Source: Octopus sinensis (taxonomy: Eukaryota). From it: a stretch of 64,000 nt of DNA. The notes below the pieces were generated by a model. The model worked only from the letters and a program-made list of their open reading frames with translations, was not told the DNA's origin and did no database searches. Shown here piece by piece: positions 10,875 through 32,400 of this stretch. A program made the position numbers and the translations under genes. Position 1 is the stretch's first letter; each line of letters opens with the position of its first letter. The stretch spans positions 19,406,001-19,470,000 of the forward strand of contig NC_043017.1 of the NCBI RefSeq assembly GCF_006345805.1, written 5' to 3'.

Positions 10875-11731
10875 TTAATGAAGATAATAATCCTTATTAC
10901 TCCAGCTAGACTGACACTATAGGCTTCTGTAAATTCATATTAATTTTTTTCATTTTCTCCCCTTCTAATTTAAATATGAAACTTTTAAATAAATGTTCAG
11001 CCTTAAGTCTTTTGATACTAATCTGCTTGAGACTGCTTCAGGTCCTGTGAGACAAACTTATTGTTTTAAAATAATCTAAATTAAACATTTACTTATACTG
11101 TATAAAATAATCTTAGATAATTAGATGGAATCATAATTTCTGAAATGTGTAATGTTTACTGAAGAAGAACATTACAATGTTATCACATCAATTGTAATTT
11201 CACAGATAAAAGGCTTTCAAATAATTTAAACTGTTGAGGTTTTTATTTTAGACATGTTTCAGGTTAGTACGTGAATTTAAATTGTATAAATTTTAATAAT
11301 TTTACCATTAATGCAGACACAATAAGTACCGATGTTTATGGTTTAGAAATAGCCTGAGATGGTCTCTTGTGTCATTGTTTCAATGCAAAAATAAAAGAAC
11401 ATTTCTTTTTTCATTTAAAAATAAGGGGGAGAGAGAGAGAGAGAGAGAATGATGGGGAGGAAGAGAGTCAGAAAGAAAAAGACAGACGAAGAGAAAACAG
11501 ATAGATGGACAGACAGATAGATAATTGGACAGACAGAAGATAGATTGACACACAGGTGGATAAACATATAGATAGACAGACAAATAGGTAGATAGATAGA
11601 TAAACAGATGCTAGACAGAAGACAGGATAGATAGTCAGACAAATAGATGGATAGATAAATAGAAAAAGAGACAGATAGATAGATTGACAGACAGATAAAC
11701 AGAAGGATAGATAGACAGAGAATATACCAAC

Positions 11732-11941
11732 CAAAGCATCACTCTCTATTCCGTCATTGGTTGTATTATTTTCAGACTTTGATTTCGGTGAGTCGGGGGG
11801 CGCTGGTTGAGTGTCATAGCCAACATCTTCTGGTCGCAGACGTTGCAAAGATGGCGCATCATGATTACCTGAAGTATTCCATGGGTAAGTTTCATTCACC
11901 CATTCTGCGGGGTCTTCCCATGGTGCCCTTCTACCGTAGAG
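11732..11941 (-). CDS. NAV2: NAV exon [21 protein letters not shown]...LRPEDVGYD...ESDAL (probably penultimate)
   Basis: Acceptor ttctattatctag, donor TTG|gttggt, 210 nt, phase 0-0. Follows a 19.26-kb intron. Confidence 0.93.
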
Positions 11942-14030
11942 CTAGATAATAGAAGAAACGAGAAAAAGAAAGAAGAGGATAAATGATAAGCTTCCTGGCA
12001 AACAGGACAGATTTATAAGGATGACGTCAATGTCTGAGGTTAATGAGTAATTAACAAAAATGTTCTGATTATTAAAAATCTTTCCATTTCAACCGGTTTC
12101 TGATTATCCCTGATTCTGTGAAATCGTATCACCTATTTAACAAATATTTATATTCTAATTAAAACTCACCATTAATTTTATGTTTTTAAGAGGGGCAGAC
12201 ATAGTTGTGTGGGTAAGAAATCTGCTTCCCAACCACATAGTTCCGGGTTCAGTCTCACTGTGTGGCACCTTGGGCAAGTGTCTTCTACTATAGCCCCAGG
12301 TCAACCAAAGCCTTGCGAGTAGATTTAGTAGATGGAAACTTAAAAGAAGCCTGCTGTACATATATATGTGTGGGTTGAGTGTGAATCTATGTTTGTGTTT
12401 GACATCACATGATAGTTGTAAATGAGTGTCACTGTTATACAAGCAGTGTCATTAATTTCTAATATTCTGCAAAAACATGTCCAGCCATGTGGAAGCCTTA
12501 CTTTGCTTGGAAACAGGTTAGGGTTGGTGTCAAGAAGGACATTTAGCCATAGAATGTCTGCTTGAATAAACTCCACCTGACCCATGCAAGCATGGAAATG
12601 TGGACGTTAAAATGATGACGATGATGATAAAGAAATGCATTTTATATTAACCCCACCCCACCAATGAAGTTTATGATTTAAAAAACATGGGCAGTGGTAC
12701 AATAATCTCTTGATTTTTTTTTTCTTCCCCAAAGGACCCTTTGTGTTGATATACCACAAAGTCTTTTTTCGGTTTTGCTCTTTTCACAAATTCTACCATC
12801 CACCATAATACTACTACTACTACTACTACTACTAATAATAATAATTTCAAATTTTGGCTCAAGGCCAGCAATTGCAGGGGAGGGGCTAAATCAACTACAC
12901 TGACTCCAGTGTTCAACTGGGAATTATTTTAAGGATCACAGGCAAAGCTGACCTTGGCGGAATTTGAACTCAGAGTGTGAAGACAGACAAAATACCACTA
13001 AGCATTTCACCTGGTGAGCTACTGATTCTGCCAGTTCATCACCTTAATAATAATAATAATAATAATGCTTTCTACTAAAGGCACAGGGCCATATGCTTTT
13101 GGGGATGGGTCTAGTCAGTTACCTCAACCCCAGTACTCAACTGGTACTTATTTAATCAATCCCGAAAGGATGAAAGGTAAAGTTGACCTCGGCAGAATTT
13201 GAACTCAGAACATAGTGGCAAATGAAATACCACTAGGCATTTCACCCAACATGCTAATGATTCTGCCAACTTGCTGCCTTAATACGATGATGATGACGAC
13301 GATGGTAATAATAATAATAATAATATAATAATAATAATAATGATAATAATAATGAAGAAAAAGATCCCTTATGATTTGTATAATATTTGAAAGATAAGCC
13401 GTATCAGAATTAAGACAGGCGTAAATATTTTATATTGCATTTAGTAGAAATACACGAAATTATTCAATTAAATAAATTGAGACAGAATTGATAAATGAGA
13501 TTGGTATGGAGGACAATGTAAAATAAATATGAAAAAACAAACCCCAACAAAACAAAGCAATTTTGGGTTGAAGAAGGTTGTTATTAAGTATTGGAGAAAC
13601 CAATCATATCGAAAATATATTTTGAGAGTGGAGGATGGACATTGTGTGTGTGTGCCATAGGTGAAGTGTACAAGTAACCTTAATAGACTAAAAAAAAAAT
13701 CAGTCAATCAATCAATCCATATTCACACGCACGTGCACACACATACATGTATGTGTATATATGTATGTATGTATATACATGTATTATATAATTTTCTAGA
13801 ACAAACAGAAATAAAATTAAATTATGAGTTTATGCGGACTTTTTGTTGATTAAGAAAAGAGAAAAAAAAAAATCATCCTCAAATATCCGTTGTGTCCATG
13901 TGTGTGTATATGTATGTGTGTGTGCAACAATTTATCATTTGATTTATGTTTGTGTACATTTGTGAGTTTGTGTCTATGTATGTGTGAATATACACACACA
14001 CACACACATGTATGGATATATATATATATA

Positions 14031-14092
<62 letters not shown>

Positions 14093-15030
14093 ACAAGTTA
14101 CCAGTTGATTTGTGTGTGTACCTATGTATGTGAGCATATGTATGTGTGTGTATACACACCAATATTTATATTTGATGAACAAATATTTAGTCTTGTTATG
14201 TAAATATATATTACTATCTATCTATCTGTCTATCTACCTACCTATAGCATTACACATGCAAGCATGCATAAATATGGAAGAACAGAACTCAATACATGTG
14301 GTGAAGTATGACCAGTGATTCAATGCTGAAAATTATCTCTGCCACACCTCAGAGCTTTTCTCTGTACTTCATCTTTCAAGCAACAAAAATAGAGTATCCT
14401 CTTCAGACAGAGTACTCTACGTCCCAAGCATTCCTAGTAAAAACACTCAGGAGTAGTCACTGGAAAATTCTAGATTTTGTAGAGGGGACAAAAAAACCTT
14501 TGAATTACTTACTGAAAATACAGGCTGAGTCAGAAGTCCCTTCTCTATTTTAAAACTATTTATCATTTAAATGCTAAAGGCACACTGAATCACCCCGTGT
14601 ACTGTTCAGTTATCTTTTATTTGTTGACCATGCTGGGGCACCACCTTGAAGGGTTTTAGTCAAACAAATTGACCCTAGTAACTAGTTCTAAGTCTAGTAT
14701 TTATTCTATTGGTCTCTAATGCTGAACTTCTAAGTTATGATGATGTAAACAAACCAACACTGGTTGTCAAGAAATAGTGTGTATGTATATATATCATCAT
14801 CATCGTTTAACGTTCGTTTTCCATGCTAGCATGGGTTGGACGGTTCAACTGGGGTCTGGGAAGCCAGAAGGCTGCGCCAGGCCCAGTCTGATCTGGCAGT
14901 ATTTCTACAGCTGGATGCCCTTCCTAACGCCAACCACTCCATGAGTGTACCATATATATATATATACATACATGTGTACCATATATATATATGTACCATA
15001 TATATACATGTACCATGTATAATATATATA

Positions 15031-15081
<51 letters not shown>

Positions 15082-18000
15082 ATACATACATACACACACA
15101 CACTCACATGCATGTGTATACATTATGAGCTTCCATGCAGTTTCTGTCAACCAAAGCCACTCATCAGACATTGGTCAGCCTGGAGCTATAACAGAAGACA
15201 CTTGCCCAGGTGCCATGCAATGGGACTTGTCCCAAAACCATGTTCGTTACAAGACAAAGATTCCCAGCCATACATCCAAGCCTGCATCTGCATGTTGTTT
15301 AATCCCAGGTAAATGCTGATCAAGCAAACCTACGAAAATATTCCCACCATGACCATCCACCTTACTTTCAAACAACGTATCCTTCATCATATATTCATGT
15401 TTTCCAGCATGTGCTTCCTTTATAATGATGGTAAGGTGTCATGTGGCTGCTATTTCTAGCAGCTCAAGCAACCATACACAGACTCCCTTCTTGGTGTGTT
15501 TTTATCTTTTAACTGTGAAATTTCACAATTATTCCAATAATGGTTTTAAATATCTACCAGAAAATAGAATTGGTATTTTCTGCTTCTATAAACTTGACAT
15601 ATCTCAACAAGAAATTGCTTCAAAAATGACATTCTCCTTTACTCTTTTACTTGTTTCAGTCATTTGACTGCGGCCATACTGGAGCACCGACTTTAGTCGA
15701 GCAAATCGACACCGGGAGTTATTCTTTGTAAGCCCAGTACTTATTCTATCGGTCTCTTTTGCCGAACCGCTAAGTGACGGGGACATAAACACACCAGCAT
15801 CGGTTGTCAAGCAATGCTAGGGGGACAAAAACAGACACACATACACACACATATATATATATATAGATATATATATATATATATACATATATACGACAGG
15901 CTTCTTTCAGTTTCCGTCTACCAAATCCACTCACAAGGCATTGGTCAGCCCGGGGCTATAGCAGAAGACACTTGCCCAAGATGCCACGCAGTGGGACTGA
16001 ACCCGGAACCATGTGGTTGGTTAGCAAGCTACTTACCACACAGCCACTCCTGCGCCTACAAAAGATAAATTGGTTACATAAAACTGATCTCTGTAGTTAA
16101 AAGTTAATGAAATTTTGAATGGATGTATATGAGGTTTCTGCAGTAGAAGGGTTAACGAAGATAAATTCTTTTCTCTTCTTTTTTTTTTTTTAATTAAATG
16201 TGCAAATTAAAGGAGCTAAATTTCTTTTGTTTGAATGCTAGTGTATGAAGCGTGTGAAAGTGAAGAATGAAATTCTAAAGAAATTTTGCCAATTGCTCAC
16301 AGACCGAATTATATTACGGTGCAAATGTGCACAGTGTACAAACAGCGCCATCTATACATACGTAAATGCAATGACGATGACAACGCGATGACAACAAGAG
16401 GTACGAGACGGACACGATACAAGAGGAGCGAACGTTTCGTTGATTTTGGATCTCGGAACTGACGACGACAGAAATGAACATCACGACACGTCACAAACAT
16501 AACGACTGTGGCGGAAACTAAGACAACATCGAAGAAGGACATGCAGCTGGCGGAGGAGGAGGAAGAGGAAGAGACAACATGTGACAACAATGAGAGGAAA
16601 ACATGCAGAGAATGATAATAATAATAATGCTTTCTACTGAAGGCACAGGGCCATATGTTTTTGGGGATGGGTCTAGTCAATTACCTCAACCCCAGTACTC
16701 AACTGGTACTTATTTAATCAATCCCGAAAGGATGAAAGGTAAAGTTGACCTCGGCAGAATTTGAACTCAGAACGTAGTGGCAAATGAAATACCACTAGGC
16801 ATTTCACCCGACATGCTAATGATTTTGCCAGCTTGCTGCCTTAATACGATGATGATGATGATGATGATGGTAATAATAAAGGTGATATGCTTCGAATCAA
16901 TTTGGGCTTTCCCGTCACCGATTTACTGTTAGAATAATTTCGTTAATGAGAAAATTGATTGCTTACTAACTGGGGATATTCTTAGATTGGTGTGGGGATA
17001 TGGGGGAAGGAGAGAATTGCTTTTGAGAGATGAAAGCATACGAGAAAGTTCTGCAAATTCACTTTTGACCACTGAAGAAGCTGCCGCAAAACAAGAAGCA
17101 GTTGTACATTAGCTAGAGTATAGTGATCCCTAGTTAGGGTACAAGGGTCATTAGCTTGCATACAGGGGTCATTTGCTAGGATACAATAACAATTAGCTAG
17201 AGTACAACGATCATTAGCTTGAGTACAACGATCATTAGCTAGAGTACAACGATCATTAGCTAGAGTACAATGACCATTAGCTAGAGTACAGCGATCATTA
17301 GCTAGAGTACAATGACCATTAGCTAGAGTACAACGATCATTAGCTAGAGTACAATGATCATTAGAGTACAGCGATCATTAGCTAGAGTACAACGATCATT
17401 AGCTAGAGTACAATGATCATTAGCTAGAGTACAATGATCATTAGCTAGAGTACAGCGATCATTAGCTAGAGTACAATGATCATTAGCTAGAGTACAGCGA
17501 TCATTAGCTAGAGTACAGCGATCATTAGCTAGAGTACAATGATCGTTAGCTAGAGTACAATGATCATTAGCTAGAGTACAATGATCATTAGCTAGAGTAC
17601 AATGATCATTAGAGTACAGCGATCACTGACAAGGAGTGGTTACTTAGTATTCTTAGCAGCACATACACTCAGTGACAATGTTGTGTGAAACCAAGCAGTA
17701 AATACCCCATAAGAGTTTATTTTGAAGCTGAGATGCACTGATAACATAAGCGATGTGTGTTGGTTTGTTTTTGTTTAATGTGATTACGCACGTGTGTATG
17801 TGTGAAGATCAAATCAAGAATGACTGTAGACGGTTAACAGTGTTTTGGGGAACAGCTCAAGGTAGAACTTGCAGAGGGAGAGAGAGGAAATGAAACAACA
17901 GCCCAGACTGGTGTAGCTTTGCCTAAGTTAACAACTATGCTTCAGATACAGAAACCCACATTGGTGAATATTGCATCAAACATCTGAGGGTCAAAGTAGC

Positions 18001-21000
18001 TGTTTTAGAGAAATAGGGCAGGTGTCTTCCACTATAGCCCCGAGCCGACCAAAGCTTTGTGATTGAATTCGGCAGGCGGAAATTACTGCCGTGTATGTAT
18101 ATGTGTGTGTAGGTGCTTGTGCCTCTCCAAAAGAGAGAGAGAGAGTTGAGGGATTTCTAGAAATTTGGGTTAAAATTGTAAGGAAGCTGTATACGTCTGT
18201 CATTATCATCATCACTATTTAGAAGTCCATGTCCCATGCTGCCTTGGGTTGGACAGTTTAACAGGATCTGATGGAGCGCAAGGACTGCATCATGCTCAAG
18301 TGTCTGGCATGGTTTCCATGGTTATTACTCTTCCTAACACCAACCGTTTTACAGTGTGTACTGGGTACTTTTTCATGCCAGCAGCACTGTTGAGGTTGCA
18401 AGTCTAAGACCCCTGAGTGTGTATTGGGGTAGGAGCACTTTACAGCCTTGAGAATAGGGAACAGAGAGGGGTTAAGTATGAGATAAAAGGGCCAGAGCAG
18501 GAAAGGCTTCTTGTAGTAGGGGAGCAACATGGCTACTCACATTTTAGAAGGGAGGGTAGGGGAAGGCAGGGGTGGATCCAGAGAGTAATATAAGTGGTGA
18601 TGAGGTACATATTCATAAACAGCATCTAGATCACTGGTAACCCACAGGCTTGGACAAGTGGCAGGGGGGAATTGAATGCCATTTACGAAAGGACAATTAA
18701 CTAATGGTTAACTGCCCACCCCTCCACCTTCATATTTACATATATCTGAAGGAGATGCATTTTGTGAGAATGAAGATGATGATGATTTAAGAGGATGATG
18801 ATGGTCGTTATTATTGGTTTCAAATTTTGGTACAAGGCCACTATTTTCAAGGGAGTGGGTGAGTTGATTACATATGACTCCAGTACGCAACTGGTACTTA
18901 TTTTATTGACCCCTGAAAGGATGAAAGGCAAAGCTAACCTTGGCAAGATTTGAACTTAGAACCTGAAAATGGATGGTATACTAACAATTCTGTCAGTACG
19001 CCACCTTCCTATGTTGATTATTATTATTTTATTATTATTATTATTGAGTGAGAGAGCAGTTCATGCCATCAAAGTGACACTGGGGTAAAATATACGAAGT
19101 TTGCTGTAGCCCATCTTTTATACCAAGACAAAACAATGTACATGATAACACTTCCAATCAGTTAAGATCAGAAGCCATGAGAGCCACTGCCTGGTACTAT
19201 TGTTGTTGCACTGTTTTATACAAGATGCTTCAAGTCTTCATACAGGGACCTCAAGTAACAGCAAATTGCATGTTTCACCGTGGCTGTTATTTCTGCTTAG
19301 CAATGGATATATTCCAAGGAAAGGAGTCTAAATACTGAGAATTAAGATTCTGTTAAAAGTTTGTTGTACAATTTGTGATTTTGAAAAAAGTTTTAAATGA
19401 ATCAAATAATCTCAGGTTGACAAGTGCTTCTCTTAGGATATGGGCTGCACCAAAAAAGAACAATTTTTGTAGTTCTGATATTTGGGGTTTCCTGGTATTT
19501 GAGCATTGGGTTTAAAAGTGCCATTTGGTATTATACTCAAAGCTTCCATGGTCAGAGGTGCACTTGTTATTCTTAGATGCCCATTTCTAAGACCTCTGTT
19601 TCAAGGTTCTTATATTATCATTATTATTATCATTATGTTTATGATAGAAACTATATCAAACGTGTCCTCAATGGTGTCCCTACAAATAAATATATATTAA
19701 AGGTACATGATGTGTGTGTGTGTGTATATTTAACTATATGTATGTATATATAGGAATATTTGCAAGTTGGTTCTGTGAATCTATGTTGTAGCATTGGATT
19801 GTCAAATTCCTAAAGAAATTTCAAGGGTGGACATCCGTCTTCGTACCAGCCATTTGGCAGAGCACCAGGTTGACCAATGGAATCAAAGCGATGAACTTTG
19901 CTCAAGGACACAACTGCCCTTACTCAATGGGTCACCATCCTTGACCCACTGGGCCGCTCAACTGTTTATTTTTTTTTTTTTATACCTGAGGAAGTGATTC
20001 TTCAATATAAACTGTATATATATATATATAAAAAAAAAACAAAAACAACATAACTGTAAATCAAATATGCTGGAGAAAAAAAAAATAGGGGGGAGAGGTA
20101 GTGCTTATAAAGTACCAGTGACTAAAGAAGAACTTCACAGAAGACATGCTGTAGTCTGTTTACTTACCTCATTGTCATTCAGTTTACGTGACTGGGAGAA
20201 AAAATAGGAGGCAGTTGGAAGCAATATTTTCAATCATTTCAATAAAATAGGCAAATAACAATAACGTCTCTACAACTAGCAAATACGACAGCCCTAAACA
20301 CTATCAAATAATGGGTTCAAAGTTTTGGCCCAAGGCCAACAGGTTTTAAGAGGGGGGAAAGGAGTTAAGTCGATTACATGACCCCAGTAGTGTTCAACTG
20401 GTACTTTATTTCATCAACCACAAAAGGATGAAAGGCAAAGTCAACCTTGATGGGATTTGAACTCAGAATGTAAAGAGTCGGAAGAAATGCTGCTGAGGAT
20501 TTTGTCCAATGTGCTAATGATTCTGCCAGCTCATCACAATAATGATAATAATAATAATAATAATAATAGTCCTTCCTACAATAGGCACAAGGTTGAAAAT
20601 TTGGGGGAAGAGAACTAGTCGATTATGTCGACCCCTGTGTTTCACAGGTACTTAATCTATTGACCCCAAAAGGATGAAAGGCAACGTGTACCTTGGCGGC
20701 ATTTGAACTCAGAATGCAAAGGCAGATGAAATGCTGCTAAGCATTTTGCCTGGCTTGCTAATGATTCTGCCAGCTTGAATAATTCTTACCATTATAGGGG
20801 CACAGGGCCTGAAATTTGGGGGAAGAGGGGCTAATTGAATACAATGATTCCAGAGTTTAACTGTTACTTATTTCATCGACCCTGAAAGGATGAAAGGTAA
20901 TGTTGATCTTAGTGGGATTTGAACTTGAAACGTAAACCTGGAAGAAATTCTGCTAAGCATTTTATCCGGCATGTTTTCATACTTTGGCACAAGGCTACAA

Positions 21001-23711
21001 ATTTTTAAAGGGGAATGATATGGTCAAGTCACTTACAGTGGCTCCAATGCTCAAAGGGTGCTCTATTTTAACAACGCTGGAAAGATGAATGGCAAAAGCT
21101 GACCTCGGCAAAATTTGAACTTAGAATGTAGACTTAGAAGAAATGCCACAGAACATTTTGTCTGATGTGCTAATGATTTCACCAGCTTGCCACCTTATAA
21201 ACATCATCAAATAAGATCTAAACACTATCAAATGATAATATTTAAAAAAACTATGAAATAATAGCATTGAACATGACCAAATATTTGCCTTAAACACGAT
21301 TAAAAGAAAACAGTAAAAAAACATGAACAAATAACTCTAAACACTACATAACAAGAGCTAAACCCAATGAAATAATAGCCCTAAACATTATCAGGTATCA
21401 CCCATAAACACTATTAAATGCTTGCCTTAACCCTTTTGTTACCAACCCGGCTGAAACTGGCTCTGTTGTACAAATGTCTTGTTTTCATAAGGTTTAAATT
21501 AAGATCTTCAACCAAACAGTCATAATTTATGTTCTTAACACTAGCTGAATGATAACTAAGTTATTTTACTAAATTCTTTATTATATTTAAAGTAATTGAA
21601 AGAAACACAGAGCACCTCAAAATAAATACAGTAATGAAAGAGTGAAACACCATAAATGTTGCCCTAAATGCTATAAAATCCCAATCATAAACACTATGGA
21701 ATGTTTGTTTGTTCTGTTCCCTTCTTTCATTTTTTCTTAACCTTTCATCACCCTGGCATAAAACTGTCTCCCTGTCTACTGTAGTCTGGTTCCATCAAAG
21801 GAAATCTTAGTCTCGTGAGCTACACGGTAACCTCTCTAGTGCTGGTGCTATGTAAAAAGCACCCAGTACACTCTGTAAAGTGGCTTGCATTAGGAAAGGC
21901 ATCCAACCATGGCAACCATTATAAAACAGACACTGGAGCACAATGCAGTCCGCCAATTCATTGAATCCTGTCAGACTAACCAAAGTATGAAAGACGGGCA
22001 TTAAAAGCTGATCTTTGGGTTTGTGTTGTCTTTCTAAGACAATAAGAAAACTGAAGGGAAAAATAATTATAAAATATATTTTTATCTTCTGACAAATTAA
22101 GATAAATTATTAATCAACAGATCAGAAACTTAACATAAGGCACAGGAGTGGCTGTGTGGTAAGTAGCTTGCTAACCAACCACATGGTTCTGGGTTCAGTT
22201 CCACTGCGTAGCATCTTGGGCAAGTGTCTTCTGCTATAGCCCCGCGCCGAACAATGCCTTGCGAGTGGATTTGGTAGACGGAAACTGAAAGAAGCCTGTC
22301 GTATATATGTATATATATATAAGTGTGTGTGTATATGTTTGTGTGTCTGTGTTTGTCCCCCTAGCATTGCTTGACAATCGATGCTGGTGTGTTTACGTCC
22401 CTGTCACTTAGCGGTTCGGCAAAAGAGACCGATAGAATAAGTACTGGGCTTACAAAGAATAAGTCCCGGGGTCGATTTGCTCGACTAAAGGCGGTGCTCC
22501 AGCATGGCCGCAGTCAAATGACTGAAACAAGTAAAAGAGTAAAAAGAGAGTATAACTTGACAGACAAACGTCTACAAAAGTTTACCTCATACCTTTAACC
22601 CTTCAGCATTCGGATTATTCGCCCCTTGGTCATGACTCACCGTGAGATAGCACCTAGGAAGTTCCTCTCCAAGGCACAAGTCCGAACAAGGTTGGTTATG
22701 AAAGACCAGTAGTTGCCCATGCATACTGGCCACCCCATCTCCATGTCAACCGATGTTATTGAAGGGAAAGGCAAAGAGGCTGATACAGCTTGCCACCAGT
22801 GATGTCACAGCTCATTTCTACAGATGAGTGAATTGGAGCAATGTGAAATAAAGTATCTTGTTCAAGAACACAACACACAGCCCAGTCCAGGAATCGAACT
22901 CACTACCTCATGATCGTGATCCCGATGCTCTAACCACTGTTTTGAATTAAACATGCATTATCTTGTGGCTTTGAGATTCTGATGATGTCATTATTTATTT
23001 CTAGAATGACATTGTAGGGTGGGTGTGAGAGGCTCGATATAGTCAGTTTGGACATAAAACCAGAAGGATGTTTAGCCTTGATGTGGCCAGTTTAAATGCT
23101 AAAGAGTTAGGGCCCATGAACTTGGAGTTCATCTGCATTTCTAATGTAATTAGAAGACAGACAGAACAAGAGCCCTCACTGCCGCTCCCCAAATGGGATA
23201 TAAGCTTGTTGCCGAGTTATCTCCAGTGTAGCACTGGTATTTATCTTCAGCTGAACAAACAAAAGCAATGTGAAATGAAATGCCTTGCTCAAGGACACAA
23301 CATCACATCCAGCCTAGAAATTGAACCCACAACAAACCGCTGGTGAGCTCAACATCTTAACTACTAAGCCCAGGCACCTTCATAACTTGATGGAGTTATA
23401 GAAATTAGTTAATTAATTGATTAATTGAGGTAAAATTTACTTCGTAGTTTTTAATGTGCTATTTATAGAAGTAATTATATTTTACTTAATACATATAATA
23501 AATAAAGAGAAAAGTATTTTTTTTATGGTGGGAAGGGATGAAGGGAATTGAGAAAGCTGAGATAGCTTAAAGTTGAGAGGCTTAATTAATTACATATGCA
23601 CATATTAATCATTCACACACACACACACAAAGTACTCAAATATTAATTAAAGGATTATTCAACACCTTTAAGAAGAGTATCATATTTATTTTTACAAAAA
23701 GTTATATATAC

Positions 23712-23759
<48 letters not shown>

Positions 23760-26531
23760 ATATATATATATACATATATATATACACACATACACATATA
23801 TATATATATACACACACACACATACACACCTATGTAATTATGATATGGGATGTTATTTTTAAATGAATTAGTCAAGAGAAAGGGTCTTATCTAGGATTTT
23901 TGCAGACCCTCCCAGGCAGGTGAGATTGGAGGTGTGGAGGAGTACACAACTGGAAGAACCATCTGCAGGTGTAATGTCTTCATTAAAAACGAAGAGCAGA
24001 AAGGGAAACAGTGTTGGTGCCCTTCCTGTCATCAACCCTCACCTGTTTCCAAGCAAGGTAATATTTCCTCAAGGCCAGACATGCTTTCAGGAAAAATTGA
24101 AAAGGAACAACACTGCTTGTATGATGGTGACACTCATTTACAACTATCATGTGATGTCAAGAAAAAAGCACACACACACACACACATCAGTGGTTCTCAA
24201 ATATTTCCCACCTCTGGACCCCTTTGAATTTTACTTTATGTGAGTGGACCCTAATAGCCATTTGTTGTTTAAAAACCCCTATTATATTTTTATAATTATT
24301 ATAAGAAATTGTATTTAAAAAAACTGTTAAATTTTCTTTTGTATTGTAGACGTATAACCAATTTATTGCAGATAAATTTAAATAACAAAATCTTATGTGG
24401 ACCCCCAAGGGCCATATGGACCTTGGTTGGAAAACACAGATATATATATATATATGATGGACTTCTTTCAGTTTTCATCTACCAAACCCATTCGCAAAGG
24501 CTTTTATTGGCCAGGGGTGTAGAAGTTACTTGCCCAAGGTGCCACACAGTGGGACTGAACATGAAATCACATGGTTAAGAAATGAACTCCTGGTCCATAC
24601 ACATATACATATATACATACATACACACAATGAGCTTCTTTTAGTCTCCATTTAGCAATCACATACACATGTATGTATGTGTGTGTGTATATATCATCAT
24701 CATCTTCATTCAACATCTGCTTTCCATGCTGGCATGGGTTGGATGGTTTGACTGAGGACTGGAAAACCAGGAGGCCGCACCAGGCCCCAATCTGATCTGG
24801 CAAGGTTTCTACAGCCGGATGCCCTTTCTAACACTAACCACACCGTGAGTGTGGTGGGTGCTCTTTACGTGCCACCAGTACGGTATATATATATATATAT
24901 ATATGTGCATATATATATATACATATATATATACACACATACACATATATATATATATACACACACACACATACACACCTATGTAATTATGATATGGGAT
25001 GTTATTTTTAAATGAATTAGTCAAGAGAAAGGGTCTTATCTAGGATTTTTGCAGACCCTCCCAGGCAGGTGAGATTGGAGGTGTGGAGGAGTACACAACT
25101 GGAAGAACCATCTGCAGGTGTAATGTCTTCATTAAAAACGAAGAGCAGAAAGGGAAACAGTGTTGGTGCCCTTCCTGTCATCAACCCTCACCTGTTTCCA
25201 AGCAAGGTAATATTTCCTCAAGGCCAGACATGCTTTCAGGAAAAATTGAAAAGGAACAACACTGCTTGTATGATGGTGACACTCATTTACAACTATCATG
25301 TGATGTCAGAAAAAGCACACACACACACACACATCAGTGGTTCTCAATATTTCCCACCTCTGGACCCCTTTGAATTTTACTTTATGTGAGTGGACCCTAA
25401 TAGCCATTTGTTGTTTAAAAACCCCTATTATATTTTTATAATTATTATAAGAAATTGTATTTAAAAAAACTGTTAAATTTTCTTTTGTATTGTAGACGTA
25501 TAACCAATTTATTGCAGATAAATTTAAATAACAAAATCTTATGTGGACCCCCAAGGGCCATATGGACCTTGGTTGGAAAACACAGATATATATATATATG
25601 ATGGACTTCTTTCAGTTTTCATCTACCAAACCCATTCGCAAAGGCTTTTATTGGCCAGGGGTGTAGAAGTTACTTGCCCAGGTGCCACACAGTGGGACTG
25701 AACATGAAATCACATGGTTAAGAAATGAACTCCTGGTCCATACACATATACATATATACATACATACACACAATGAGCTTCTTTTAGTCTCCATTTAGCA
25801 ATCACATACACATGTATGTATGTGTGTGTGTATATATCATCATCATCTTCATTTAACATCTGCTTTCCATGCTGGCATGGGTTGGATGGTTTGACTGAGG
25901 ACTGGAAAACCAGGAGGCCGCACCAGGCCCCAATCTGATCTGGCAAGGTTTCTACAGCCGGATGCCCTTTCTAACACTAACCACACCGTGAGTGTGGTGG
26001 GTGCTCTTTACGTGCCACCAGTACGGTATATATATATATATATATATACATATGCATATATATATCATCATCATTGTTTAACGTCCGTTTTCTGTGTTAG
26101 CATGGGTTGGACGGTTCGACCAGGGTCTGGGAAGCCAGGAGGCTGCACCAGGCTCCAGTCTGATCTGGCAGTGTTCCTACAGCTGGATGCCCTTTCTAAC
26201 GCCAACCACTCCATGAATGTAGTGGGTGCTTTTTACGTGCCACCGGCACAGAAGCCAGTCAAGGTGGCGCTGGCATCGGCCACGTTCGGATGGTGCTTCG
26301 ACCACGTATATATATATATTATATATATATATGCATACACAAATGTATACATAATTGATGGTGGGGAGTCAATTACATCAACCTCAGTACATGACTGGTA
26401 TTTATTTTATTGACTCTCAACAGGATGAAGGGCAAAGTTGACCTTGGTGGGATTAGAACCCAGAACATAAAGACAAAGGAAATGCTGCCACGTAGTCTGT
26501 CTGGTGTGCTAACACTTCTGCTAGCTTGCTA

Positions 26532-26564
<33 letters not shown>

Positions 26565-27133
26565 TCAGTCTGTTGCTATCTCTCGTTAGCATATAAGTTG
26601 TGTTAAGCGGATCATTAACGATGAACAGCCACACATAGGCCGAAGAAATTTATTTTAGGTACAAACTGGGATTAAATGAAATGACGCAAAGATAAAATGA
26701 GGAAACGAGGAGAAGTCGTTATTAATAGAGCTGAGTACAGGTTAAATAGTTTGAAGTACCATTCATTAAGATGGTATTTCATAAGTAATCTCTAACAAGT
26801 TATTGATTGCAGCAAGCATTTCTTTCTTTCCTTGTAACTTTTTTTTTTTAATTGCATGTTGAGTGGAATTAAATTATTTTGATTAATGTTTTTATGAGGT
26901 AGATTTCTTTTTTGACTGTTTTTTTTTTTCATACAAGAGCGAGGGGAAGGGGAAAAGATATAAGGGATTGGGAATGTTAATTAAATAGCGGGGAAGATGG
27001 AATTCAGGCCCCTAAAAATAGAATATAATTTATGTTGATTACTGTCAGCCGAAAGATGAGGGTTTAAGATGTTAGGAACAGATATAGAATATGCATAAAA
27101 TTGGTATAGACAACATGCTACTCTGCTTGAGAG

Positions 27134-27220
<87 letters not shown>

Positions 27221-27790
27221 TGTGTGTGTGTCTCAAACATCAGCACATGATTTCCTTTCATAGACAACAAAATTTCCTTCAGGGCAAAACTCCAGAATGG
27301 CCTTAACTGCCATAGCTAACACACACACACACATATACACATGATGAGCAGACTTATGATCAGAGGTATTCCAGTTGTGACCATCCCGGCTTTTGCTTTT
27401 GTGTGTGTACGCATGGGGCACTTGTCTAAAACTACGCTAAGTGCTTTTCTTACACAAGGACCAGAAGAAATACTGCCCTAATAATAATAATCCTTCCACT
27501 ATAGGCACAAGACCTGAAATTTGGGGGCTGGGAGTCAGTTGATTATACTGACCCCCAGCATTGTAGTAGTAGTAGTAGTAGTAATAATAATAATAATAAT
27601 GATGATATTTTCAAATTTTGGCACAAGGCTAGCAAGTTCAGTGGAGTGGGTAAGTTGATTACATTGCTCCCAAGAGGATGAAATGCAAAGTCAACCTCAG
27701 TGGAATTTGAACTCAGTATGTAAGAACAGACAAAATGTTATTAGTAATTTTGCCTGGTGTGCTAATGATTCTGCCAGCTCGCTGCCTTGC

Positions 27791-27828
<38 letters not shown>

Positions 27829-29391
27829 TGATGATGATGGTGATGATGATGGTTTCTATAAAAGAAAGGCAAAGTCAACATTGGCAGAATTTGAACTCAG
27901 AATCTAAAAATGGACAAAATACCACTAGGCATTTTCTCCCATGTGCTAACAACTCTGCCAGCTCATTTGCCAAAAAAAAAAATGATGATGATGATGATGA
28001 TGATGGTGATCCTTTCTACTAAAGTCACAAGGCCTGGAATTTTAGGGGAGGCTACTAGTCAATTACATTGACCCCAGTGTTTCACTGGCACTTAATTTAT
28101 CGACTCTAAAAGGATGAAAAGGCAAAGTCGACCTCGACGGAATTTGAACTCAGAACGTAAGGATGGATGAAATGACGCTAAGGATTTTGCCCGGCGTTTT
28201 AACAATTCTGCCAGCTCACCACCTTAAATGATGATAATAATGATAAGAAGAATAATAATGCTAGTAATTATGTGAGTAAATATTGCTTTTAGCTGTCCGG
28301 GAATTAAGGAAAAAGTGACAAAAACAAAACGAAAACAAACTAATCACTGCAGGGTAGATACAATGACGATAGAAGAGTACAAGAAGTTTTATAAGGGTAG
28401 GGGATGTGCCACAACAACGGGAGACAAAAAATAGACAGGACTAAGCTACTAAAGATGCTAGGGATCAATTGCACAAGGATGGTGTTTTGAAAGGGTTCGA
28501 TCTAGCTTTTCAGGTGGGATTTAGGGGGAAAACAATTAGTGAAGGAAACAGACTAAACTACTAATTAAACTAGATGACAAATTGGTAATTAAAAAAAAAA
28601 TAAAGTTTTTTTTTGGGGTTTTAAAAACAATAAACAAAAACAAATGAGCCATTTTGAAAATTTGACATTTGAGAAAATTTTGTTTTTAGATGAAACAAAA
28701 ACAACATTAATAAACAACTGAAATAATTAATTAATCAATCACATATTTACATGTTAATTAAATTATCAGTGATTGTTTTCATATATTACACACATACACA
28801 CACATAATATATGTATAAGTGCAAGCATGGCTGTGAGGTAAAGAAATTCATTTTGAAACCATGTCCTTTTGGGTTCAATCCCACTGCACAGTACCTTGGA
28901 CAGTGTCTTCTTCTAAAGTACTGGGTTGACTGATGCCTATGGGAGTTGGAAACTGTGTGGAAGCCCATTGTGCGTGTGTGTGTGTGTATATATATGTATC
29001 AGACTGGAGCCTGGTGCAGCCACTGGCTCTCCAGACCTCAGTCAAACTGTCCAACCCATGCCAGCATGGAAAAACGGACGTTAATCAATGATGATGATGA
29101 TATACACATCATAAAGAATGGAGAATTATACATCTCCAAAATTCATTTATTACATATATATTTACCAAAAATCAGACTAAGAGAATTTTATTGTTGTTTT
29201 AAAAGAACATTATTCATATTTCTATTCTAAGTTTCAAAAATTTATTGTTCCTCATATTACAAGTCTAACCATATTTAAACATATCTGATAAAAACCCTTA
29301 AGACCCCACCTTTTCCTTACAGGAAACAAGTAATTCTTATCATCATTATTATCATTACTACAAGCACTCTACTATTATCATTATTATTATT

Positions 29392-29426
<35 letters not shown>

Positions 29427-32400
29427 TATTTTATCAGTTTGTTTTGGTTGCCAGTCCCTAGCATCCATTTTTACCCACATTCACAGGCAGAATGGTGTTA
29501 GTTGTTGGAGCTTTTGTTTTTCCAGCTGGATGTCTTTTCCTACCACAAAACCACTCAACCATGAAGTGAAGCTGGGAGTGTCAGCTCGTTCTTCAGCTTT
29601 AATCAGTCCAGGCTGAAGGACAGACAAAGCTGTGTGCCTTCCTCTGAACCAAATGTTTTTGGTAAGTATTCAACTTGACAGTCACTGCATATCACATTAT
29701 CAATCTTTGGACTTGAGCTGGTAGAATCATTAACCAGACAAAAAGCTTAGTGTCATTTCATCAGTGTGTTGTGGAGGGAACTGACACCCCCCACACATAA
29801 GTGTCAGTAGACTGGATGAGTCTTATAAATTGAGGAACTAGTGGACAGAAGAGGTCAAACTGTGTGAGAACATTAGTATCATTATTGATTTGGCCATGGT
29901 TCTTACCATCACTGAAGTTAAGCAACATCGAGCCTAGTTAGTACTTAGATGGGTGACCGCTTGGGAAACCTAGGTGCAGTAAGCATTCCATTTTTAAGGC
30001 GGTGAGCTGGCAGAAACGTTAGCACGCCGGGAGAAATGCCTAGCAGTATTTCGTCTGCCGTTATGTTCTGAGTTCAAATTCCACCAAGGTCGACTTTGCC
30101 TTTCATCCTTTCGGGGTCGATTAAATAAGTACCAGTTACGCACTGGGCTCGATATAATCGACTTAATCCGTTTGTCTGTCCTTGTTTGTCCCCTCTGTGT
30201 TTAGCCCCTTGTGGGTAGTAAAGAAATATATTGATTCTGTATTGGAGTGTTGGATTGTTATTGTGCTTATTGTTATATGGCTATATTCGGTATTGTGATA
30301 TATCGTTATGCACACACATCATATATCATTGCTGATGATATAACACAGTCTTTACATTCTGAGTTCAAATTCCACTGCAGTTGACTTTGCCTTTCATTCT
30401 TTTGGGTCAATAAAATAAGTAGCAGTTGAGAACAGGGGTTGATGTAATTGACCAGGCCCCTCCCCACAAATTTCAGGCATTGTGCCGGTGGCACGTAAAA
30501 AGCACCATCCGATCGTGGCCGTTTGCCAGCCTCGTCTGGCACCTGTGCCGGCGGCACGTAAAAGCACCCACTACACTCACGGAGTGGTTGGCGTTAGGAA
30601 GGGCATCCAGCCGTAGAAACATTGCCAGATCAGACTGGGCCTGGTGCAGCCTTCTGGCTTCCCAGACCCCAGTTGAACCGTCCAACCCATGCTAGCATGG
30701 AAAACAGATGCTAAACGATAATGATGATGATGTGCCTCTAGCAGAATGGTCTACTTTTATTATTGGCTCTTCATGACACTTTTACTGTTTCACATAGTGG
30801 GACCCCAAAAGCACACCAATCAGGAAGCAAACTTCTTAATCACACAACCACACATATTATTTGTCTGTGTGTCTCTATAAATACATATATGTATTTGTCT
30901 TAGGTATCTATATCTATGTATGCATATGTGTATATGTATGTGTAAGTATATATGTAACTATGTTTACACACACACACACACATTTATATATACATATGTG
31001 TGCGTATGCATTTTTTAAATATAAAACCTTTTGATTTGAAGGTATCTTACCACTGATTCCTGGCTATGGACTAAATACAAATTTAGTACACAAGATAACG
31101 AGAAATGGAATTATCATACATTATTATTATTATTACTATTAATAATAATAACAGCAACAACAGGCTGCAGTTAGAAATGTTTTAAAAGATCAAGAATTAC
31201 CTGTAAACCTCCTTTAACAGCTTCTAATAGGTAAGGAACAATGGAATAATTCCATAAATCTGTGAACCATGCTTGGGATCCTGAGATGTCCATTGGACAG
31301 CATAAGAACAACCTGGGGCCTACAAAATAAATATGTTGAAAAATGTTAGATTACAATATGTGTGTGTGTGTGTATATATATACACACACACACACAGGGT
31401 TGGCCAAAGTTTACCTACATGACAGAAAAATCAAAACCATTTAATTCCAAAATTAAAACCAAAAATTATTTTATATGAGACTTCACTAATAAATAGACAA
31501 ATGTTGACAAAAAAACCAGACTGTTACATGCATGCATTTCAGAGTCGTTATTTCCTCTTCAGCAGCAGAGGTCAGAAAGGGTCACAAATGTATACATGTG
31601 TTGTTTATCAGCCAATAACAACAACAAAAAAAAAAGACCCAGTTTATTATGTAATGCATGTGTAGTTTCTTACCAATGGTGACATCTGAAGAACTGTGGG
31701 TCTCTAAGAATTTATTAAGATGCTGCCATACTTTGGGAATCCAATCGATGATTTTGTTTAGGTCATTATTTCGGGTACCCATGTGTACCTCGGCTTCTAC
31801 CAATTTGCGGCGTAGGTAACGACCAAGGAATCCCTTTACTGGTTCCATATGGTTGGCACAAAGAACCCATCTGCAATGTTTAAAAAAAATATATAAATAA
31901 AATGAAATAAAAATAAGTAATAAAAAAAAATATCAAGGAAAACAACAGCAAAAAAAACCAAACATTCAAGGTGGACTTAGGTGAAATTTTTATGTCTTTC
32001 TTTTGGACTGGGGTCTTGCTGGAGCACCACCTAAAATGGCTCGGTTACTCAAACTGATTCCAATTTTTTCAAGTACATATTTTGTCAGTCTCTTTTGTTG
32101 AAGCACCAGCTTACAGGGACATAAACAAACCAACACTGGTTGTGAAGTATTGAGGTGGGAGACAAGGACACACACTTACACATAAATGTATGATAGGCTT
32201 CCACACAGTTTCTGCCATCTAAATTTAACTCAATAGACACTGATTGGCTCAGGACTATAACAGAAGATACTTGCCCAAGTGGCTGTGCCTCTGTGAAGAT
32301 GCGTGGCCTACTGGTTAGGGTGTTGGGTTCATGATCATAAAATCATGGGTTCAATTCCTGAACTGAGTCTTCTTGAAAGCTAAGAATTTTAGTAAAGGTT

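Follow-up and report, generated by a model that had tools for sequence, protein, structure and literature searches.

The octopus Navigator gene contains a real, alternatively spliced cassette microexon of 24 nt that inserts the octapeptide SRKLNDNE in phase 0 (20168..20191 on the minus strand of the window, that is, of the whole 64-kb stretch of DNA analysed). The exon was read from the sequence and recovered in a transcript contig (X14) and in the peptides P0001, P0121, and P0124. On the minus strand, ...ttccaactgcctcctattttttctcccag runs directly into the 24 nt (20191-20168), which form eight codons without a stop and are followed by gtaagt, giving a very short internal exon with canonical AG and GT sites (CAG, 24 nt, GTAAGT). 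Its 3′ splice site (20192..20214, minus) has pyrimidines at 18 of 20 positions in a tract adjoining the CAG and is the joint strongest of 13 acceptors in the gene, as judged by simple counts rather than by a trained splice-site model; the donor GTAAGT (20162..20167, minus) matches the consensus. The microexon divides a phase-0 host intron of 19,259 nt (11942..31200, minus) into 11,009 and 8,226 nt, and its own phase agrees with both flanking exons: the upstream one (31201..31319, minus; PRLF...GGLQ), which supplies most of the last lid helix, and the downstream one (11732..11941, minus), which starts LYGRR, ends SDAL, and encodes the end of the AAA+ lid. The original prediction of an in-frame 24-nt microexon thus holds in sequence and splice sites, in both predicted junctions in X14, and in a cuttlefish peptide.

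Public transcripts contained both splice forms. Of 24 public runs, 20 included the downstream exon; their records give neither an RNA label nor a library or tissue entry. We compared eight runs from seven studies over window positions 11731-12010, with one contig per run. All eight contigs ceased to match the genome at the acceptor of exon 11941, and both types of loose end agreed with the form predicted from the window, without a mismatch in the 30 letters displayed. In seven contigs the upstream exon was joined directly to 11941, and this skip junction was the sole form of the run. The eighth contig, X14 (679 nt, depth 17.7), had the inclusion form, again as the sole form: beyond exon 11941 it continued with 22 letters of the microexon and then 8 of the upstream exon, matching the predicted inclusion product throughout. 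Both junctions that had been proposed for a search were therefore found in this run, the upstream one resting on those 8 displayed letters. Since the contigs join sequences across 8 to 19 kb of intron, they derive from spliced RNA; and since contigs drop rare variants, they reveal the dominant form per run (included in one of eight, skipped in seven) rather than a level of inclusion. Both forms also occur among the cuttlefish gene models.

The octapeptide is not confined to one species. SRKLNDNE stands at the identical site, between GLQ and (L/V)YG, in XP_052831527.1 and UniRef100_A0A0L8G0B3 from Octopus bimaculoides and in CAE1311282.1 from the pharaoh cuttlefish, all three being automatic gene models; two cuttlefish sister models (CAE1311285.1 and CAE1311283.1) and four more proteins of the same cluster lack it. 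Between octopus and cuttlefish, the insert is identical at 8 of 8 residues, the next exon at only 73-74%. The two animals represent different superorders (Octopodiformes and Decapodiformes), and the octopus–decapodiform split is dated to ~275 Mya (according to PMC9068888), arguing that the phase-0 exon, compared here as protein rather than as DNA, has been conserved across that divide. Conservation in other cephalopods had been named as a check, and the cuttlefish model bears it out at the level of the protein. The expectation that the exon would be easily missed by annotation failed, as it is present in gene models from both RefSeq (O. bimaculoides) and GenBank (cuttlefish). The SRKLNDNE exon is one more conserved alternative microexon, a class that is well known.

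A pattern applied to the 448 fetched proteins picked out 306 that span the junction, nine of them coleoid-type. Three of these nine carry the insert, as compared with none of the 297 others (mostly vertebrate; named non-cephalopods together with records without a species name), so the statement that vertebrate NAV proteins have no insert holds for the proteins fetched. As many as 296 of the 297 have no insert of any kind at the junction. The exception is a gene model from the nemertean Lineus longissimus (XP_064627307.1; P0178), with three extra residues, VRN, that look like donor read-through. A wasp cluster (P0205, Microctonus) and four similar proteins have an 8-residue insert five residues beyond the junction. 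Because the named non-cephalopod molluscs sampled were few (two scallop isoforms) and Nautilus was not among them, we call the exon coleoid-specific provisionally. A degenerate exon pattern had 0 matches in metagenome contigs, and the octopus's own genome gave one match to the exon region. Our literature search returned no paper on the SRKLNDNE exon and no dedicated study of short-exon control in cephalopods; the supplements of 10.64898/2026.09.05.749416, which cover eight O. bimaculoides tissues, may list it with its tissue, and 24,410 characters of the PMC9699675 supplements (PDF excluded) gave 0 matches to navigator or sickie.

We also asked how readily such an exon arises by chance. Scanning for a pyrimidine-rich YAG, 3-30 nt in frame, and GTRAG, with thresholds set with the candidate in view, returned the microexon as the only candidate on both strands of the 64-kb window; within the host intron, the sense strand gave this exon alone and the antisense strand nothing. 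In block shuffles of the intron, look-alikes appeared in 0 of 200 under strict, 5 of 200 under medium, and 40 of 200 under loose settings. RNA around the microexon showed no unusual folding (z 0.75, equalled by 153 of 200 shuffles). A second pyrimidine tract with CAG about 100 nt downstream (window 20090-20070, minus) resembles the microexon's acceptor, and we rejected it as there is no in-frame GTRAG donor within 30 nt.

The host gene, of which 13 exons were mapped in the window and whose 5′ part extends beyond it, is a Navigator: its product matches PF25408 (AAA_lid_NAV1; E 4e-48), PF00004 (AAA+), and PF23092, with a ubiquitin-like domain preceding the AAA+ module, and an O. bimaculoides entry named neuron navigator 2 matches the downstream exon at 100% identity. 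In these domains—ubiquitin-like, AAA+, and NAV lid—it resembles the Navigator/Unc-53/Sickie isoforms described in PMC9877351. The insert occupies residues 268-275 of P0001, within the PF25408 match (188-303), which places it in the AAA+ lid as had been proposed. There the likeness ends: in the human and fly isoforms compared in PMC9877351 the conserved domains are unchanged, whereas the octopus exon alters the lid. To find isoforms that differ inside the AAA+ lid of a Navigator is accordingly mildly new, the comparisons given in that paper having found none there.

Structure prediction was confident over the lid of the skip form. AF2 (P0002, 88 sequences) modelled it with block pLDDT values of 92-98 over residues 691-750, including a 31-residue helix (702-732) in which the exon junction, Q730|V731, falls two residues before the helix end, ahead of a conserved Gly. 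The included form was of low confidence at the site (pLDDT <50 over 216-287), and the position of the insert in the lid helix is thus a prediction from the skip form. Insertions and deletions in the family occur after R735, five residues past the junction, in 46 of 124 rows, where a loop accommodates inserts of 1-31 residues. The closest solved fold was the McrB AAA+ domain (Foldseek E 1e-7; VIA Z 15.3, rmsd 3.6, 240 aligned, with model residues 472-746 on McrB chain residues 168-456), in agreement with the McrB-clade assignment of the Navigator AAA+ module in PMC9877351; a sequence search of the PDB gave one weak match (PCH-2, E 0.005). McrB is described as a hexamer that holds nucleotides at its subunit interfaces and makes in-trans contacts, one of them via Phe428 (PMC7680126). 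For Navigators, PMC9877351 states that neither oligomerisation nor NTPase activity has been demonstrated for any member.

Taken with the transcript data, these observations make it fairly probable, in our judgement, that SRKLNDNE marks a tissue-switched lid exon of the Navigator (Unc-53/Sickie) gene, tuning the contacts of the AAA+ ring or of its partners and leaving the catalytic site alone. Most of the transcriptomes sampled lacked the exon and one had it, with one form per run, a pattern that would suit switching between tissues. Inclusion would add eight residues at what is predicted to be the terminal turn of the last long helix of the lid, where the polar, charged octapeptide may extend or uncap the helix end on the lid surface and so could alter ring or partner contacts of the McrB-like module. 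Walker A lies more than 200 residues upstream of the insert in P0001, and it is the location of the helix end, on the lid surface and far in sequence from the Walker motifs, that suggests a change of contacts rather than of chemistry. What the Navigator AAA+ domain does is treated as an open question in PMC9877351. The exon provides a natural eight-residue variant of the lid, unchanged for ~275 My in coleoids, and were the lid-switch reading true, the two natural isoforms would be a ready pair for probing the role of the module. In addition, it offers a specific case in which the control of short exons in cephalopods could be tested.

A second microexon of the same gene lies ~37 kb past the window end (L006:1502-1522; G000:C21:19506884-19506904, minus). 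It is 21 nt long, encodes WPHHLPM in the coiled-coil region, and combines an acceptor with CTAAT and a UCUC-type tract with a weak donor, GTACCG. Seven proteins of the decapodiform cluster span both sites: five have WPHHLPM only, one has SRKLNDNE only, and one has neither, counts that do not establish the phase between the two inserts, as the seven are short-read assemblies and gene models. That the two never occur together nevertheless counts against a simple shared splicing programme. A more specific version of the favoured reading—a coleoid neuron-specific lid switch, opposed to the coiled-coil microexon and resetting McrB-like ring assembly or partner binding in axon growth—strikes us as improbable.

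Which tissue uses the exon, and under which factor, bears on two further readings. The motifs named in the original prediction, a TGC about 22 nt upstream and a GCATG about 20 nt downstream, are indeed there: TGC as a pair of putative role at −22 (20213-20211) and −32 (20223-20221; together 20211..20223, minus), and GCATG, in the context AGCATG, at +19 (20145..20149, minus), a putative Rbfox site. Their presence near the microexon is not clearly beyond chance, with TGC in 23% of 22-nt windows and GCATG in 6% of 50-nt windows of the host intron.

Rbfox is active in muscle, and we give appreciable, if limited, credence to a regulated exon of non-neural use (for example, in muscle or at a developmental stage) that is driven by Rbfox-like or other factors. 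Across the 13 exons, the first 100 nt downstream contain a single GCATG, the one at +19, and TGCATG is reported as the RBFOX motif enriched downstream of alternative microexons (PMC4317164); the octopus exon is like the RBFOX-enhanced microexons described there in having a GCAUG shortly downstream and long flanking introns. It is unlike them in that it has a single AGCAUG, weaker than UGCAUG, and strong splice sites, the RBFOX targets of that paper having weaker ones. Skipping in seven of eight runs, the many tissues in which Navigators are expressed according to PMC9877351, and the lack of any protein combining SRKLNDNE with WPHHLPM all speak for non-neural use, and the first would count against pan-neural inclusion if many of the runs were neural. 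Against it stand the weaker motif, its frequency in the intron, and the report (10.64898/2026.09.05.749416) that, across bilaterians, most short and deeply conserved exons with tissue-specific use are neural. A Fox-1_C profile search of the genome gave no match, and the control of the same search likewise matched nowhere, which leaves the result uninformative.

The converse reading, in which the eMIC domain of Srrm234 acts through the upstream UGC to turn the microexon on specifically in neurons, appears rather unlikely. In several respects the exon is like the bilaterian eMIC (SRRM3/4, Srrm234) neural microexons: it is a conserved, frame-keeping cassette of very small size whose donor is strong, it belongs to a cytoskeletal/neurite gene, it is switch-like from sample to sample, and its TGCs at −22 and −32 fall inside the AG-free zone. 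The genome also holds a match to PF15230, SRRM_C (32.6 bits, cut-off 27, profile positions 13-55), a family that we take to be the eMIC domain; there, an SR-rich exon (L002, G000:C11337:11167-11301, minus) ends in the first part of the SRRM_C (eMIC-like) domain, and the locus is probably an Srrm234 gene. As described in 10.1101/2024.09.17.613571 and PMC8797185, eMIC targets combine a weak 3′ site, in which UGC separates the AG from a pyrimidine tract placed farther upstream, with UCUC-rich tracts, a strong CUAAY branch point, and an extended region free of AG. The octopus exon has, in contrast, an ordinary strong acceptor whose tract adjoins the AG, TGCs at or upstream of the tract's 5′ edge, an AG-free zone of 74 nt that equals the median of the 13 acceptors, and no clear branch-point motif (no YTRAY within 100 nt, as opposed to one at 11 of the 12 other acceptors). 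TGC was, moreover, found within 60 nt of six of the 12 other acceptors (three of 12 excluding TGCAG cases). The TGC originally proposed as an eMIC signature is present, and its position, the AG-exclusion zone, and the branch point fit the published architecture poorly, with the reservation that the SRRM4 response does not strictly need UGC according to 10.1101/2024.09.17.613571.

Splicing in octopus is reported to be highest in neural tissue (PMC9699675), and all told we consider the chances of neural use of the microexon to be about even and eMIC control to be doubtful. Inclusion is as likely to be driven by an Rbfox-type downstream enhancer, acting with the strong splice sites, as by eMIC and UGC, and the microexon is not to be classed among eMIC targets.

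At the level of the protein, the insert could act as an off-switch, the octapeptide uncapping the lid helix and displacing the conserved YG..W-DP to leave a poorly assembling or dominant-negative module. We think this unlikely, despite several observations in its favour: the junction lies inside the modelled helix, the flanking residues Q267, Y277, G278, and W283-P286 are invariant in 52 aligned proteins, and 296 of 297 other proteins have no insert there. Counting against the favoured tuning role, the family indels fall five residues past the junction instead of at it, so the insert may disturb rather than tune. The Pfam lid score also falls from 169.2 bits without the insert to 157.8 bits with it, a drop that any gap would cause. 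Conversely, the junction is two residues from the helix end and adjoins the insert-tolerant loop, the L. longissimus model has its three extra residues at the same point, and preservation of the exact peptide over ~275 My suggests a specific contact over mere disruption. Splicing noise or a gene-model artefact, for which the single including run of eight with its 8 upstream-exon letters might be cited, is scarcely credible given the same peptide in independent annotations of two superorders, its status as the sole form in X14, and the rarity of look-alikes in the intron shuffles.

The gene and the window showed further features besides the tissue-switched lid exon that we favour. A 45-nt exon (GRRKQKMGMKSPTQS; window 51507-51463, minus) is absent from O. 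bimaculoides P0121 and present in seven decapodiform-cluster proteins; with a TGC at −10, between tract and AG, its layout is more eMIC-like than that of the 24-nt exon. Two donors lie in tandem, 4 nt apart, where exon 11941 ends (window 11732-11728, minus); they would give the exon at 5117-5025 (minus) two frames, reading EMNQYLSWK...NIC or VGNESIFKLE...PYP before the stop, and both endings have counterparts in the decapodiform cluster (P0130; P0132 and P0134). Neither the window nor the 30 kb that follow it yielded the terminal exon usual elsewhere in animals (LNMLM..LQE). Within the intron, a near-exact tandem duplication of ~1.15 kb (window 23755-24904 and the next ~1.15 kb) is either a recent duplication or an assembly artefact, and a 21-nt minisatellite of ~23 copies occupies window positions 17107-17612.
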